Below, one piece after another: positions 12,422 through 54,462 of a stretch of 59,572 bases of DNA. Under the pieces are notes generated by a model. The model had not been told where the DNA came from. It saw only the letters and a list, made by a program, of their open reading frames with translations, and ran no database searches. The stretch lies in NCBI GenBank assembly GCA_041600715.1, contig JBFIJM010000005.1, positions 1 through 59,572 on the forward strand, read 5' to 3'. The DNA is from Candidatus Saccharimonadales bacterium. GTDB taxonomy: Bacteria; Patescibacteriota; Saccharimonadia; Saccharimonadales; 2-12-FULL-41-12. The translations under genes and the position numbers were made by a program. The first letter of the stretch is position 1; each line of letters opens with the position of its first letter.

Positions 12422-12509
12422 AAATAAAATCGTGTTATATCTCTAGGAACAAAACTTCATTATAAGATAGGTTTTTTTACTATCTTTACTCAATAAATAA
12501 TTTATAGCT

Positions 12510-37595: not shown

Positions 37596-38072
37596 ATGAA
37601 ATACCAATCAACAAAACGCTTCGATAATTTTTCGATTGCACTAAGACAACACAAAGCATCACACAGCCACTGCGAATTACTTCATGGCTACGCATTCGAG
37701 TTTAAGATAACCTTTGAAAGTAATGAGGAGGGTATAGATGAACAGTTAGATGATATGAATTGGATAGTCGACTTCGGCGGCTTTAAAACACAGCCCGTAG
37801 GGAATGGATTAAAAGATTGGATGAACCTAATGTTTGACCACACTACCTTATTAGAAAAAGATGACCCTGTGTTAGATATTTTTCAACAACTAGAGCAGAT
37901 GGGTGTACTAAAGCTCCACGTTCTTGATAAAATGGGCGCCGAGAGCATAGCCAGATTAGTCTTTGATAAAATGAATGATGTATTAAGCAAGACAGATGGG
38001 GCGAGGTGTCGGGTACATAAAGTAGAATGCTTCGAGAACAGCAAAAACAGCGGTATATTCACAAGAAGTTAA
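37596..38072 (+). CDS. queD: 6-carboxy-5,6,7,8-tetrahydropterin synthase QueD (QueD-like)
   Basis: HC.LLHGY, W.VDFG, FDH and GAESIA motifs, next to queE/folE/queC. Confidence 0.85.
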   Translation: MKYQSTKRFDNFSIALRQHKASHSHCELLHGYAFEFKITFESNEEGIDEQLDDMNWIVDFGGFKTQPVGNGLKDWMNLMFDHTTLLEKDDPVLDIFQQLEQMGVLKLHVLDKMGAESIARLVFDKMNDVLSKTDGARCRVHKVECFENSKNSGIFTRS

Positions 38073-40255: not shown

Positions 40256-41020
40256 ATGGGAAAAACACAATTAGCAGTATCAGAGGCATTTTACTCTCTA
40301 CAAGGAGAAGGCAAGACAGTAGGTATTCCCTCTGTCTTCCTAAGATTAAAATCCTGCAACCTAACCTGCGGGTTCACACAGAAGCAGGCAAATAGTTATG
40401 TTAAGGGCGAAATTGATATAATGAAGAAAGACCTGCCTGATTCAACATGGTTCTGTGATACAGTAAATGTATTTCTAACCGGGCACAAGAAAGATTTCGA
40501 AGACGTCCTGCCAATTGACTTCGTACATAGGCTACGCCAAGGTGCCCACTTAATAGTTACAGGGGGAGAGCCTTTACTACAAAGAGAGGGGATTGTAAAT
40601 TATTTAACTTGGTTTATCAATAAGTATCAATTCACGCCTTTCGTAGAACTAGAGACAAATGGAACTATACCTCTGGAGAATTTAGGTGAATATATAGACC
40701 AAGTAAACTGTTCGCCTAAATTATCTAACTCTGGTGTTAAACTCGAGGCTAGATACTGCCCGAATGTTATAGAAAAACTGAATGAGAGGAGAGATACTAT
40801 CTTTAAATTCGTAATTTCATCCTCTCAAGATTGGCAGGAGGTTGTAGAGGATTATCTACCCTATATAGACAAAAAGAAAATCTGGCTCATGCCAGCAGCT
40901 TCAACGCTAAAAGAATTATTAATTAACAATAAAGTAACCGCTCAAATGGCTATCGACAATTGTGTGAATTTCACATCACGTATTCAGGTAGAGGTTTGGG
41001 ATAAAACAACAGGAGTATGA
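40256..41020 (+). CDS. queE: 7-carboxy-7-deazaguanine synthase QueE (radical SAM)
   Basis: FYSLQGEG...G.PSVFLRL..CNL.C...CDT, TGGEPLLQ, ETNGT, SPKL and KFV. Confidence 0.92.
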   Translation: MGKTQLAVSEAFYSLQGEGKTVGIPSVFLRLKSCNLTCGFTQKQANSYVKGEIDIMKKDLPDSTWFCDTVNVFLTGHKKDFEDVLPIDFVHRLRQGAHLIVTGGEPLLQREGIVNYLTWFINKYQFTPFVELETNGTIPLENLGEYIDQVNCSPKLSNSGVKLEARYCPNVIEKLNERRDTIFKFVISSSQDWQEVVEDYLPYIDKKKIWLMPAASTLKELLINNKVTAQMAIDNCVNFTSRIQVEVWDKTTGV

Positions 41021-41646
41021 TGGAAAAGAAACATGCACACCACAACAAACCTCTATCTAAAGAGGAGAAAGAGAAAATGATAGCGGAAGCATCTAAACAC
41101 TATGCTGGGTTTATGACAGCTCTAGGGATAGACCATGAAAATGACCCTAATAGCAAAGACACTCCGATGAGAGTAGCCAAGTCATTTGTTAATGACCTTA
41201 TAAAAGGGCGCTATCAAGAAGAGCTGAAAATAACCTCATTTGACAATATCGAGAAATATGATGGTTTAGTGTTCCAAGGGAATATTGATATGAAGTCAAT
41301 GTGCTCACATCATCACCTAGCTTTTGCAGGTGTTGTTCATGTAGCATACATTCCAGCACCTGATGGAAAAATCATCGGCCTATCTAAGCTGAATAGAATA
41401 GTAGAATATTACAGCAGGAGACCTCAAGTCCAGGAGAACCTCACTCAACAGATTTCTAAGCATATAGATAAGGTGTGTGAAAAGAACCTGGGTGTAGCAG
41501 TGTTAGTGGAAGCACAACATACTTGCTGCTCACACAGAGGTATTAAGCATGAGTCAACTATGAAAACATCTAAGCTGACAGGAGTGTTCTTAGATAATGA
41601 AAATCTTGCTAGACAAGAATTTTATGATTTTGTAAATAATTTATAA
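41017..41646 (+). CDS. folE: GTP cyclohydrolase I
   Basis: DTP.RVAK, SMCSHH, IGLSKLNR, RRPQVQE and H.CC..RG. Confidence 0.95.
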   Translation: MMEKKHAHHNKPLSKEEKEKMIAEASKHYAGFMTALGIDHENDPNSKDTPMRVAKSFVNDLIKGRYQEELKITSFDNIEKYDGLVFQGNIDMKSMCSHHHLAFAGVVHVAYIPAPDGKIIGLSKLNRIVEYYSRRPQVQENLTQQISKHIDKVCEKNLGVAVLVEAQHTCCSHRGIKHESTMKTSKLTGVFLDNENLARQEFYDFVNNL

Positions 41647-44080: not shown

Positions 44081-44749
44081 ATGAAAAAAGCAGTAGTAAT
44101 ATTTTCAGGTGGACAAGACTCCACAACATGCCTAGGATGGGCATTGAATAGATATGATGTAGTAGAGGCTATAACATTCAACTATGGACAGAAACACTCT
44201 GTCGAATTAAAATGTGCCGAGATAATCTGTGAAAAAGCAGGGGTAAAACAAACAGTAGTTGACATCTCTTTCCTGGGTACAATTGTGGAAAGCGCATTAA
44301 CGTCCAATGGAGATGTAAATAAGATAAACGATAAAGGGCTCCCGGCATCATTTGTGCCAAACAGAAATCAACTCTTCATCACACTTGCACACGCCTATGC
44401 TCAGAAAATAGGTGCAGAGACATTAATCACAGGAACTTGCGAAACTGATTTCAGCGGATACCCTGATTGCCGACAAGTATTCATCGATTCGATTGCATTG
44501 TCTTCTAATCTAGGTTCAGATTCTAAAATCAAAATCGAAACTCCACTAATGTACCTAAACAAAGCGGAGACCTTTAAAATGGCTCAAGAAGAGGGTTGCC
44601 TAGAAGAAGTAATTGAATTAAGTCACACTTGTTATAACGGAGTGAGGGATATATTGTATGACTGGGGTTATGGATGCAATGATTGCCCTGCCTGTGAATT
44701 GAGAAGAAAAGGTTGGGAAGAGGCGTCTAATCAATCAATTAATGATTAA
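44081..44749 (+). CDS. queC: 7-cyano-7-deazaguanine synthase QueC
   Basis: FSGGQDS, FNYGQKH..EL, FVPNRN, GYPDCR and TCYNG...GC..CPAC..R. Confidence 0.96.
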   Translation: MKKAVVIFSGGQDSTTCLGWALNRYDVVEAITFNYGQKHSVELKCAEIICEKAGVKQTVVDISFLGTIVESALTSNGDVNKINDKGLPASFVPNRNQLFITLAHAYAQKIGAETLITGTCETDFSGYPDCRQVFIDSIALSSNLGSDSKIKIETPLMYLNKAETFKMAQEEGCLEEVIELSHTCYNGVRDILYDWGYGCNDCPACELRRKGWEEASNQSIND

Positions 44750-47416: not shown

Positions 47417-47486
47417 TTAAATTGACCTTACCGCTGCATTGTAAGTAGGTGACTTGTTAGTGGAATATGAACTAACCGCAACCCAC

Positions 47487-47516
47487 GGGGGAAGGGCGTT
47501 ATCTTCCCCCATTTTT
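47487..47516 (+). terminator. Intrinsic terminator after the SSB gene
   Basis: GGGGGAAG-ggcgttat-CTTCCCCC followed by ATTTTT. Confidence 0.75.
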
Positions 47517-47535
47517 AACAACTTAAAATCGGAAA

Positions 47536-52381: not shown

Positions 52382-52385
52382 AAGA

Positions 52386-52415
52386 GTTGTTTATTAATAA
52401 TTTTTATTAATTTTA
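52386..52415 (+). promoter_or_regulatory. Weaker promoter variant GTTG(TTTAT)-N18-TAATTTTA
   Basis: Partial motif TTGTTTAT and a TAATTTTA box at 52408-52415, just before the structured leader. Confidence 0.5.
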
Positions 52416-52423
52416 CAGTTAAC

Positions 52424-52535
52424 AAACTTATGATGCGGGATTAAGTTTTTAAATAGCAAGTTAGCATATCTCTATATAATAATTTGAACCTTAAAACCCT
52501 GACGCCGCATCGTTGGGGTTTTTTTTATGCGGGAT
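52424..52535 (+). ncRNA. Candidate cis-regulatory leader RNA (two hairpins with complementary loops, the second terminator-like)
   Basis: Hairpin 1 is AAACTTA/TAAGTTT with loop TGATGCGGGAT. Hairpin 2 is AAAACCCTGACG/CGTTGGGGTTTT with loop CCGCAT, followed by a T run. Confidence 0.65.
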
Positions 52536-53414
52536 AATTACATTAAATATTTCTACGGCTCTTATAAGCACGCTAAACAAAAAGGTTTAAGCAGTGAGTA
52601 TTTGTTTTATCTCAAATTAAAACTCTTGAAGGATGGAGAACTAAGAGTGGGAACGATTACTAAGGTAATTCAAGAGGTGTCGTCTTACTCTCCCGCATCA
52701 ATAAGTATTTACCTAAAGAGACTAGTAGAGGCAGGTTTCCTAATCCCATTCGTAATCAAAGGCAAAGTCGTAGGCTACCAAGTCATCTCTTATAAAAGAG
52801 CTCTCAGACGAATAGGTGTCAAGACTAGATTTACGGGTGTGAGTAAGAATATAGCAAAAGAGCATAGGTTCCAGAGGTTAATCACCAATGAATTGATTGA
52901 CAATAAGATATTCAAGAACTTCATTGAGATGATGGATGTATATCAAAACTCTGAGAAGCAATTATATAAGGAAAAACAAAAAATAAAAAGGAAAATAAAA
53001 TATCAGAGAGAAAAGGATGATAGCATAACAACAAGGAAAACAATCAGGAAACTTAAAGAGGACCTCAAGTCTGTTCAGATGATGCCAGGGAATCGTTTCA
53101 AATTAAGTTGCAGAAGGCTTTCAAGGTTATTAGGCTATAAGAGTATCCAACAAGGCTCTTTGATAGAACGTAGAGCTGAGGACAATGGGTTCTTGGAGAT
53201 ACATAGAAGTTTCGGCGTGGTCGAGAAAAAGATTAGCTTCTTAGAATACCTACCAATGAAAGCATTAGATGATTCATTGTATTGGATGTTCGGGAACGTA
53301 GTAAAGAATGATTGTAACATATTATTATTTACGAGTGTTTTTCTAGGTCATTTCGAGGATAACAAACAAAGCGCACTGACATCTTTGGGCCAAGCCAAAG
53401 CTACAGCAAAATAG
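52527..53414 (+). CDS. Basic winged-helix DNA-binding protein, replication-initiator-like
   Basis: Two HTH-like segments (SYSPASISIYLKRLVEAGFL and LSCRRLSRLLGYKS...AEDNGFL) and very high Lys/Arg content. Confidence 0.55.
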   Translation: MRDNYIKYFYGSYKHAKQKGLSSEYLFYLKLKLLKDGELRVGTITKVIQEVSSYSPASISIYLKRLVEAGFLIPFVIKGKVVGYQVISYKRALRRIGVKTRFTGVSKNIAKEHRFQRLITNELIDNKIFKNFIEMMDVYQNSEKQLYKEKQKIKRKIKYQREKDDSITTRKTIRKLKEDLKSVQMMPGNRFKLSCRRLSRLLGYKSIQQGSLIERRAEDNGFLEIHRSFGVVEKKISFLEYLPMKALDDSLYWMFGNVVKNDCNILLFTSVFLGHFEDNKQSALTSLGQAKATAK

Positions 53415-53484
53415 CATTACGAATGCATTTTACTTTTGTTTATTATCAGATAATATTAAAATATTATACCCGAATGAATTCGGG
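53414..53484. repeat. AT-rich cluster of short palindromes
   Basis: GCATT-acg-AATGC, TATTATC-a-GATAATA, TAATATT-aa-AATATTA and CCCGAAT-ga-ATTCGGG. Confidence 0.6.
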
Positions 53485-54133: not shown

Positions 54134-54462
54134 TAGAATTAGCAGGTACCCCAGAAACAGATGAATTAACTCAGGCATGGCTCATGTCATTAGCCTGTGG
54201 CCAAATCATTTTAGAGAATCAAGAACTCTTAGAGGGTTCTAATAAGTATAGACAATCACTAAAACAAGCCACTAAGAGATTTCTAATAGAGGTGGAAAGG
54301 GCAATCGAACCTGACATTAATGCCATATTCGGAGAATGTGAAGAAACCTCTCAGGAGATAATAAAAGCAATCGAGGCACTGTCAAAAGTCGCATCAAAGA
54401 TGAATCCCGCCAATCTAGACAGATTAACTAGGTTCATCGAGAAGACGGGGATGGCGGAATGA
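54130..54462 (+). CDS. Hypothetical helical protein
   Basis: ATGA overlaps on both sides. Confidence 0.6.
   Translation: MIELAGTPETDELTQAWLMSLACGQIILENQELLEGSNKYRQSLKQATKRFLIEVERAIEPDINAIFGECEETSQEIIKAIEALSKVASKMNPANLDRLTRFIEKTGMAE

Follow-up and report, generated by a model that had tools for sequence, protein, structure and literature searches.

The contig analysed here, 59,572 nucleotides in length (the window), carries a candidate regulatory leader on its plus strand, immediately 5′ of a 295-codon open reading frame (ORF, 52527-53414) for a predicted winged-helix protein of a probable marine phage. The leader lies in the spacer at 52382-52526 (145 nt) and contains two hairpins whose apical loops are complementary to each other. 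Our best reading, drawn from sequence comparison, is that the element is a new leader RNA that regulates in cis and has a kissing complex at its core; the exact switch is a proposal. We favour, with some reserve, the view that the ∼105-130 nt 5′ of the gene act as a self-contained, cis-acting plus-strand leader RNA, through transcription attenuation, masking of the start codon or both. Such a self-pairing regulatory RNA probably limits the amount of protein that is made.

Complementary hairpin loops 5′ of the gene

The elements of the leader, together with two further sites in the gene, are as follows.

52408..52417, plus strand: conserved box TTAATTTTAC, 5′ of hairpin 1
52424..52448, plus strand: hairpin 1, with a 7-bp A/U-rich stem (AAACTTA/TAAGTTT) and an 11-nt loop TGATGCGGGAT at 52431-52441 (X1)
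52446..52489, plus strand: linker of 44 nt, TTTTTAAATAGCAA ... TATCTCTATATAATAATTTGAAC
52493..52522, plus strand: hairpin 2, with 12 pairs (2 G-U, 5 G-C) and a 6-nt loop CCGCAT at 52505-52510 (X′1)
52519..52526, plus strand: T run of eight, four in the hairpin 2 stem and four free, directly 5′ of the ATG
52527..52535, plus strand: start codon copy of the loop 1 9-mer ATGCGGGAT (X2), able to pair over 6 nt with loop 2 and over 8 nt with 52691-52698
52691..52700, plus strand: ORF-internal site TCCCGCATCA (X′2), codons 55-58 (S-P-A-S), a 10-nt perfect complement of loop 1 (inverted repeat I22)

On its own, hairpin 1 is weak, since 18 of 200 shuffled sequences equal its -2.4 kcal/mol; 5-6 T follow it. 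Hairpin 2, at -13.8 kcal/mol (z -3.5), is strong, and only one of 200 shuffled sequences is as good. It has the form of an intrinsic terminator, with 12 pairs, five of them G-C, a loop of 6 and then TTTTATGCGG. A terminator scan lists it as one of 4 terminator-like sites in 3 kb, compared with 1.2 in shuffled sequences. An earlier note on this DNA, made from the letters alone, had described hairpin 1 with ATGCGG in its loop and a terminator-like hairpin 2 displaying CCGCAT. Both are present as described, and the second abuts the ATG in all four loci that were compared.

These loci were taken from the family of the encoded protein, which has 13 close members among 5.8 billion clusters and 85 representatives in a profile search at E ≤ 0.001. 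Leader DNA was compared from 4 of the 13 members, which form three lineages: first, the window together with L002, a metagenome contig whose protein is the closest relative (86% identical to that of the window); second, L001, a 58.9-kb IMG/VR contig (64% identical); and third, L033, the 634,780-bp uncultured phage LR745206.1 (51% identical). A protein-pattern scan gave no relative in species-representative genomes and L001 alone in IMG/VR. Scans with P0010 as the query again gave only L001, a scan and tblastn with P0014 as the query gave no new leader, and tblastn against plasmids gave no match to the protein. Three DNA-pattern scans for the leader, whose loci were filtered by hairpin, T run, ATG and the family hidden Markov model, returned the known IMG/VR contig plus chance matches (27, 48 + 120 and 0 + 15 loci).

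All four leaders show the same order of elements, namely box, short hairpin, linker, strong hairpin, a run of seven or eight T and the ATG. A hairpin occupies the hairpin 1 slot in L002, L001 and L033 as well, with stem and loop sequences that differ. Hairpin 2, found in every locus, starts with AAAA(A)CCC and finishes with GGG(G)TTTT; its energies are -13.8, -13.3, -19.9 and -19.0 kcal/mol (z -2.6 to -4.4). The spacing between the two hairpins is 44, 43, 55 and 54 nt, and the distance from the end of hairpin 2 to the ATG is 4, 3, 2 and 2 nt. In Rfam, the best match of the window, rnk_leader, scores 26.2 bits (E 0.13) and so falls short of the threshold of 50, and L001, L002 and L033 have no matches. 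With no family at threshold, the search agrees with the earlier note, which had not recognised the leader as a named family.

The loops of hairpins 1 and 2 form six contiguous pairs in each of the four loci. The pair is ATGCGG/CCGCAT in the window and GTGCGG/CCGCAT, with one G-U, in L002. In L033 it is AGCCAA/TTGGCT, and here each loop is 6 nt long and complementary throughout. In L001 it is GGGAAG/CTTTCC, with one G-U, and extends to 8 bp when the closing pairs are opened; hairpin 2 of this locus is branched, and the kissing partner is the apical loop of its first arm. The calculated duplex energies range from -6.4 to -9.7 kcal/mol. When loop 1 was swapped for random sequence of leader composition, the p values were 0.0014 (window), 0.0025 (L002), 0.012 (L001) and 0.003 (L033), and Fisher's method over the three lineages gives p ∼1e-5. 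The empirical background agrees with these values, with two 6-mers complementary to loop 2 in 6 kb around the window leader and three in 6.9 kb of L033. The loop-loop covariation that had been suggested as a check is therefore borne out, with three unrelated loop pairs that are complementary in 4/4 loci. Since the complementarity recurs with different sequences in three lineages, the comparison indicates that the loops are under selection to stay complementary while their sequences drift, and that the kissing pairing is real. As expected of a kissing complex, 6 nt or more of the two apical loops match each other, and the complementarity is kept by compensatory change.

The simplest competing explanation is that hairpin 2 ends an upstream operon and that the loop matches are coincidental. 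Hairpin 2 does have a textbook terminator shape, and shuffled sequences reach minimum-energy folds as good as that of the full leader (z -1.1). However, the recurrence of the complementarity with new sequences in three lineages (p ∼1e-5) is left without a cause, and L033 has no upstream same-strand operon to terminate. In L033, leader and gene form one cassette (LR745206.1, ∼587,280-588,380); its neighbours are unrelated and the upstream genes are divergent. Two convergent terminator-like hairpins also stand at 2660-2731 of L033, 130-200 nt 5′ of the leader. Because the upstream neighbours of L033 lie on the other strand, hairpin 2 is not merely the terminator of a preceding operon, and because the whole leader is kept there despite divergent neighbours and upstream terminators, the leader appears to be self-contained. 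We regard the ordinary-terminator explanation as very improbable. The upstream gene of L002 also differs from that of the window, and the leader and the winged-helix gene seem to move between very different phages as one module.

The strand to which the pairing belongs was assigned from three features. First, all wobble pairs are G-U on the plus strand. Second, hairpin 2 folds at -10.0 and -7.3 kcal/mol on the minus strand, compared with -13.8 and -13.3 kcal/mol on the plus strand (3.8 and 6.0 weaker). Third, two A-to-G changes at paired positions between the window and L002, one in loop 1 and one in a hairpin 2 arm, keep the pairing only as plus-strand RNA. Since the wobbles, the energies and the changes all fit the plus strand, the loop-loop pairing is assigned to plus-strand RNA. 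In the minimum-energy folds of the window and L002, the 5′ arm and loop of hairpin 1 pair with the loop and 3′ arm of hairpin 2 in a 15-bp antiterminator-like helix. This helix was rejected as a general feature, as the pairing exceeds the loops by only 1-2 bp in L001 and L033.

The strand assignment bears on countertranscript control of the pT181/pIP501 type, in which an antisense RNA would bind hairpin 1 or hairpin 2 and drive termination at hairpin 2, the cis complementarity being secondary. A terminator directly 5′ of an initiator-like gene is the hallmark of that mechanism. In L033, a minus-strand terminator lies ∼170 nt 5′ of hairpin 1 and has on its right no ORF of 50 aa or more that it could serve; a non-coding minus-strand transcript from the L033 leader region is possible. 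On the other side, no minus-strand promoter- or terminator-like site was found in 52382-52526 by a scan that covers promoters of the sigma-70 type only. The structure is also better on the plus strand, and an antisense RNA would leave the complementarity of loop 1 and loop 2 unexplained. Countertranscript control is thus improbable here, and we retain a plus-strand leader that pairs with itself.

Pairing partners in the gene and the proposed mechanism

The 9-mer ATGCGGGAT is found in loop 1 and again at the start of the ORF, as the earlier note had pointed out; there are exactly two copies in the 59,572 bases, at 52433 and 52527. With up to one mismatch it has 10 sites against 6.9 expected, which is not significant. 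The 6-mer ATGCGG occurs 13 times against 9.9 expected, and 4 of the 13 fall within 52433-52698. In the surrounding 6 kb, the only plus-strand complements of the loop 2 6-mer are loop 1 and the start codon. Loop 2 of the window is thus a perfect 6-nt complement of both. In L001, loop 2 with its closing C (CCTTTCCA) can pair without mismatch over 8 nt with TGGAAAGG at the start codon, and it pairs with loop 1 as well. In contrast, the start of L002 (ATGCAAGAT) and that of L033 (ATGCAACAA) are complementary to loop 2 over just 4 nt, which leaves a complement of at least 6 nt in two of the four loci. Resampling of codons 2-5 from the same ORF gave p values of 0.013 (window), 0.015 (L001), 0.55 (L002) and 0.74 (L033). 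The value combined by Fisher's method runs from 0.007 to 0.11, depending on whether the window or L002 is chosen. The loop motif is also frequent in L001, of which 6.9 kb contain 19 sites of 6 nt or more.

These results divide the earlier proposal of a mutually exclusive pairing of loop 2. Complementarity to both partners stands in the window and L001, and fails in L002 and L033, where 4 nt remain. A three-way switch as the core general mechanism, in which the pairing of loop 2 with loop 1 or with the start codon sets both termination and translation, is therefore doubtful. A choice between loop 1 and the start codon may operate in two lineages and, as judged from these four loci, cannot be the general mechanism.

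Hairpin 1 of the window also contains a mini-ORF at 52430-52444, ATG ATG CGG GAT TAA (M-M-R-D-stop), which resembles the M-R-D start of the main ORF; a ribosome on it would open the hairpin. A mini-ORF is present in 3/4 loci at differing places and with differing peptides (MMRD, MVRD and MKIFK). It reads M-V-R-D-stop in L002 and lies just past hairpin 1 in L033, and L001 has none that begins with ATG. A conserved leader peptide was rejected on the grounds of this variation in place and peptide and of its absence, with an ATG, from L001.

The second site lies in the coding region, where 52691-52700 is the partner of the loop 1 segment TGATGCGGGA. Each ORF was searched for the best complement of the locus's own loop 1 plus two flanking bases per side. 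In the window, the match runs from +165 to +174 with 10 Watson-Crick pairs, and no other 10-mer of the ORF matches (codon-shuffle p 0.007). L002 has a loop 1 complement at the same place, with 10 pairs including one G-U. In L001, the site spans +162 to +170 with 9 Watson-Crick pairs, or 11 with G-U from +160 (p 0.003). The L001 pair differs in sequence from that of the window (GCAGGGGAA / TTCCCCTGC), and nowhere else in 6.9 kb of this locus do 6 nt or more complement loop 1 by Watson-Crick pairing. No loop 1 complement was found in the ORF of L033 (best match 5 nt). The duplexes of loop 1 with the ORF site are calculated at -19.0 (window), -18.4 and -11.9 (L001) kcal/mol, and in the window the value of -19.0 compares with -9.4 kcal/mol for loop 1 with loop 2. 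The RNA of the ORF site folds worse than shuffled sequences (z +1.3, +1.4 and +0.7). Two lineages therefore have X elements (loop 1 and the start region) and X′ elements (loop 2 and the ORF at about +165) at homologous places, and the third has the loops only. Farther downstream, at 54390-54410 in the 3′ end of a 110-aa gene, the 7-mers CGCATCA and ATCCCGC complement loop 1 with their starts 14 nt apart; this is probably a coincidence, as chance alone would give ∼1.8 such 7-mers in 6 kb.

In the window and L001 lineages, the start region (X2) would act as a copy of loop 1 and the ORF site (X′2) as a copy of loop 2. Any X could then pair with any X′, so that the start codon could always be locked in the finished mRNA. 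Translation would take place mainly on nascent transcripts, in a kinetic window during which loop 2 is held by loop 1 and X′2 is still unmade. A more elaborate and speculative version, which we consider unlikely, is a four-element co-transcriptional timer made up of the leader and the first 175 nt of the ORF. Here, X1 would hold X′1 as the start codon emerges, leaving the nascent mRNA open to ribosomes; once X′2 is transcribed, the stronger X1-X′2 duplex (-19 kcal/mol) would release X′1, which would lock the AUG after a short burst of protein from each mRNA. Accumulated full-length mRNA could also titrate hairpin 1 of nascent leaders in trans, favouring termination at hairpin 2. If true, the timer would limit each mRNA to a brief burst of a dose-sensitive DNA-binding or initiator protein. 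A four-element lock is not the general mechanism, because the start element is missing from two of the four loci and the ORF site from one.

The repeated motif could also act in DNA, as operators or iterons bound by the winged-helix protein for autoregulation or at an origin. The window has four copies of an 8-mer in alternating orientation (52433, 52505, 52527 and 52691; two direct and two inverted, in 270 bp), and L001 has four too. The product is predicted to bind DNA, and its sole whole-length structural match is an iteron-binding initiator. However, the motif is wholly different in each lineage, whereas the predicted recognition helices are almost constant (SPASISIYLKR vs SPASITIYLKK). 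L033 has the two loop copies only, and the first two copies lie exactly in apical hairpin loops in all four loci. The variants are compatible with G-U pairing and do not match a consensus, and no tandem iteron array was found nearby. Sites in DNA are accordingly an unlikely explanation of the pattern.

For the leader RNA that we favour, the proposed course of events is as follows. Hairpin 2 would stop most transcripts 5′ of the gene. In read-through transcripts, it would mask the ribosome landing site of an mRNA that lacks a Shine-Dalgarno sequence. The kiss of hairpins 1 and 2 (6-7 bp) would modulate termination, masking or both, thereby keeping the DNA-binding protein low and controlled.

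The regions between and before the hairpins bear on where such an RNA would start. The linker is the best-conserved primary sequence of the four leaders, with the consensus TTTTTA.A...TAGCAA.T.A ... TAT.T...TATATAAT(AAT)TTGA. It may serve as promoter or operator, or may fold into a third hairpin (CAAGTTA/TAATTTG); the candidate hairpin shows no covariation. The RNAalifold consensus on a MAFFT alignment of the four leaders (-2.25 kcal/mol) points only to this possible linker hairpin, and the value itself is meaningless since the variable hairpins are misaligned. The box 5′ of hairpin 1 has the form T(T/A)AATTTTAC across the four leaders, and TAATTTTAC is identical in all of them in the alignments. 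One possible role is that of a -7 promoter element of the Bacteroidota type, for which GTTG stands 19 nt farther 5′. Candidate transcription starts are thus 5′ of hairpin 1 (GTTG-N19-TAATTTTA) or, from TATAAT..TTTG in the linker, at the base of hairpin 2.

The second candidate start leads to an alternative in which hairpin 1 acts in trans, as a separate small RNA (sRNA) or the 3′ end of an upstream transcript, and the mRNA starts at TATAAT..TTTG with hairpin 2 at its 5′ end. The hairpin 1 loop would then target, in the manner of an sRNA, both the hairpin 2 loop and the +165 site. This arrangement would account for the linker being best conserved and sharing AATTTG with the recurrent intergenic motif AAATAAAATTTGTTTAT, for a linker start falling at the base of hairpin 2, for the 5-6 T after hairpin 1, and for loop 1 suiting the ORF site (-19.0 kcal/mol) above loop 2 (-9.4 kcal/mol). 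The stem of hairpin 1 is, however, too weak for a terminator. A possible lower stem (52418-52423 with 52460-52465) would also join hairpin 1 and part of the linker on one RNA. This stem is kept by three changes between the window and L002, including a C-G to U-A double change and a U-G to C-G change, and these changes favour a single RNA that spans hairpin 1 and the linker. We therefore hold a trans-acting hairpin 1 to be unlikely, and continue with the single cis-acting leader.

Several points weigh against the cis-acting leader. The promoter-like boxes in the conserved linker count among them, because a transcription start there would place hairpins 1 and 2 on different RNAs. The whole-leader fold is undistinguished, as given above, and hairpin 1 is marginal by itself at -2.4 to -4.6 kcal/mol across the loci. 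The 4-bp hairpin 1 of L001 was picked after its complementarity had been seen. The start codon element (absent in 2/4 loci), the ORF site (absent in 1/4) and the 15-bp helix (not kept in L001 or L033) are not general, and the comparison rests on four loci from three lineages. Moreover, on sequence alone the kiss may either raise or lower expression. The sequence was found in 4 marine-metagenome runs of one study, none of them listed as RNA, and two short contigs downstream of the ATG contain no variants.

The encoded protein and the contig

The gene and a candidate terminator 3′ of it are as follows.

52527..53414, plus strand: ORF of 295 aa, in which a long coiled-coil hairpin links two predicted winged-helix domains; family without a name
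53469..53484, plus strand: candidate terminator downstream of the ORF that would close the gene, hairpin CCCGAATGAATTCGGG; the scan lists it on both strands, and its T-poor plus-strand tail makes it a weak candidate

The AlphaFold (AF2) model of the protein has a mean pLDDT of 82.5 and consists of a winged helix (∼20-95), a helical hairpin (126-185), a second winged helix (∼190-235) and a small β domain. Foldseek against the PDB gave only winged helices of the MarR, PadR and MecI types at E ∼0.01, and none at E ≤ 0.001. A wide structural search was dominated by the coiled coil, and the only whole-length match was R6K π with iteron DNA (2nra_C; 182 residues, r.m.s.d. 4.9), whose Z of 6.9 is in the noise range of the tool. 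BFVD gave four matches at E ≤ 0.001, three unnamed and one called 'Helix-turn-helix domain protein', and at lower ranks 'Replication initiator protein' (rank 8, E 0.011) and 'Replication protein O' (rank 16, E 0.033). In sequence searches, the protein matched no Pfam family, gained no name from PHROGs or the PDB sequence profile and had nothing above the cut-off in NCBIfam; the Rep_3 family model in particular gave no match in Pfam, PHROG or NCBIfam. Among 62 wider relatives, 9 have marginal winged helix-turn-helix Pfam matches only. No iterons or tandem repeats were found near the gene. Assignment as a winged-helix DNA-binding protein is thus supported by the predicted model, and a replication initiator is plausible. 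The earlier description as a replication-initiator-like winged-helix protein holds for the winged-helix domains (AF2 model and Foldseek), and its initiator part finds only the weak R6K π match and the low-ranked BFVD names.

The window is one whole contig (C5) of the binned genome G000 (contigs C1-C30), in which a single contig of 771 kb (42% G+C) is accompanied by 29 others of 1.6-70 kb (34.5-43.4% G+C). The 68 listed ORFs, each 45 codons or longer, are all on the plus strand. Encoded proteins include a DnaE-type polymerase, DnaB-like and DnaG-like proteins, a ribonucleotide reductase, SbcC, a Holliday-junction resolvase and a UvrD helicase, a gene set with phage-type replication and recombination functions by its sequence. 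Genomes related to the bin are 0.6-1.2 Mb in size, and in a search of 30 genomes of the bin's own family the winged-helix gene family was found in 0 of the 29 besides that of the window. For these two reasons, the contig is most likely a phage binned together with a small genome, and the binning is probably wrong. By eye and uncounted, the 30-nt stretches 5′ of the 68 ORF starts appear A-rich and no Shine-Dalgarno motif was noticed in them, which points to a Bacteroidota-like host rather than the organism of the bin.

Other features of the contig concern its expression and its DNA. The intergenic motif AAATAAAATTTGTTTAT recurs at ∼2683, 28796, 38112, 44754, 53530 and 57800, with a variant near 12422. 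It is placed 45-60 nt 5′ of gene starts, many of which are directly preceded by AAATCGGAAA, and is probably the main promoter type of the phage plus a short leader signal. The spacer before the winged-helix gene does not contain it. A second terminator-shaped hairpin (GGGGGAAG...CTTCCCCC, then ATTTTT) is found at 47480-47535, 24 nt 5′ of the ATG of an SbcD-like gene, with no promoter motif in between. Partial terminators within the gene train may be a general expression-setting device of this phage. Finally, genes for a QueD-like protein (PTPS; 37596-38072), GTP cyclohydrolase I (FolE; 41017-41646) and QueC (44081-44749) suggest a phage that makes a 7-deazaguanine base, possibly for modifying its own DNA.

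Comparison with known regulatory RNAs

Close analogies to the leader are found in plasmid replication control. In the pT181 repC and pIP501 repR systems, countertranscripts attenuate transcription of the plasmid rep gene. The present leader is similar in having an intrinsic terminator directly 5′ of an initiator-type start codon, with kissing contacts that would decide the fate of the leader. However, both kissing loops are on the same strand here, probably on the same RNA, there is no antisense promoter in the scan for sigma-70-type promoters, and the alternative 'preemptor' helix is unconserved. In IncB, IncI-alpha and IncL/M plasmids, a pseudoknot activates repA/repZ translation; it depends on a leader peptide being translated, and an antisense RNA blocks it. 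The shared feature is a leader hairpin loop that pairs with the translation start of the rep gene. In the present case, loop-start pairing is found in two of the four loci, the mini-ORF is unconserved and the pairing would cover the AUG itself. The likeness to rep pseudoknots drawn in the earlier note therefore extends to the loop-to-start complement of the window and L001, and not to the other two loci or to a leader peptide.

Closure of a start site by a distant segment of the same RNA is also known from MS2 (folding of the maturation-gene leader and the Min Jou interaction) and from fold-back inhibition of hok mRNA, which are single long-range helices. As in these systems, the translation window would be set by folding or by ribosome passage. 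The arrangement differs in having two X and two X′ elements, two of them on hairpin loops, in the mRNA of a double-stranded DNA phage. Regarding the protein, R6K π and RepA/Rep_3 initiators likewise have two winged-helix domains in one chain of ∼290 aa; here, a coiled-coil hairpin of ∼60 residues lies between the domains, no family sequence match was obtained and no iterons were found.

Classical kissing complexes include ColE1 RNA I/RNA II, R1 CopA/CopT, TAR/TAR*, L2-L3 of the purine riboswitch and the 5′UTR-3′CITE contacts of plant RNA viruses. The leader shares with them fully complementary, covarying apical loops of 6-7 nt; in L033, both loops have exactly 6 nt and are paired throughout. 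To our knowledge, in none of these complexes does a 5′ hairpin contact the loop of a terminator hairpin placed immediately before a start codon. A full-text literature search, judged from titles and the starts of abstracts, gave no description of such a leader.

Very little work exists on cis-regulatory RNAs in phages of Bacteroidota-like hosts. Translation in these hosts is not initiated by way of Shine-Dalgarno sequences, so that the structure of the RNA near the AUG is expected to be one of the main points of control. The element described here is compact: a terminator-shaped hairpin that touches the start codon is tied by a covarying kiss to an upstream hairpin and, in two lineages, to a site in the coding region. 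The cassette of leader and gene is common to a ∼60-kb phage and a 635-kb phage. If the proposed mechanism is true, the leader would be a small, orthogonal and reprogrammable regulator, since its loops can be changed in pairs, as they have been between the natural lineages. In summary, the leader as read from its sequence resembles the rep attenuators and pseudoknots and the start closure of RNA phages, yet departs from the defining features of each, and it would represent a new architecture among the RNA controls of initiator-type genes.

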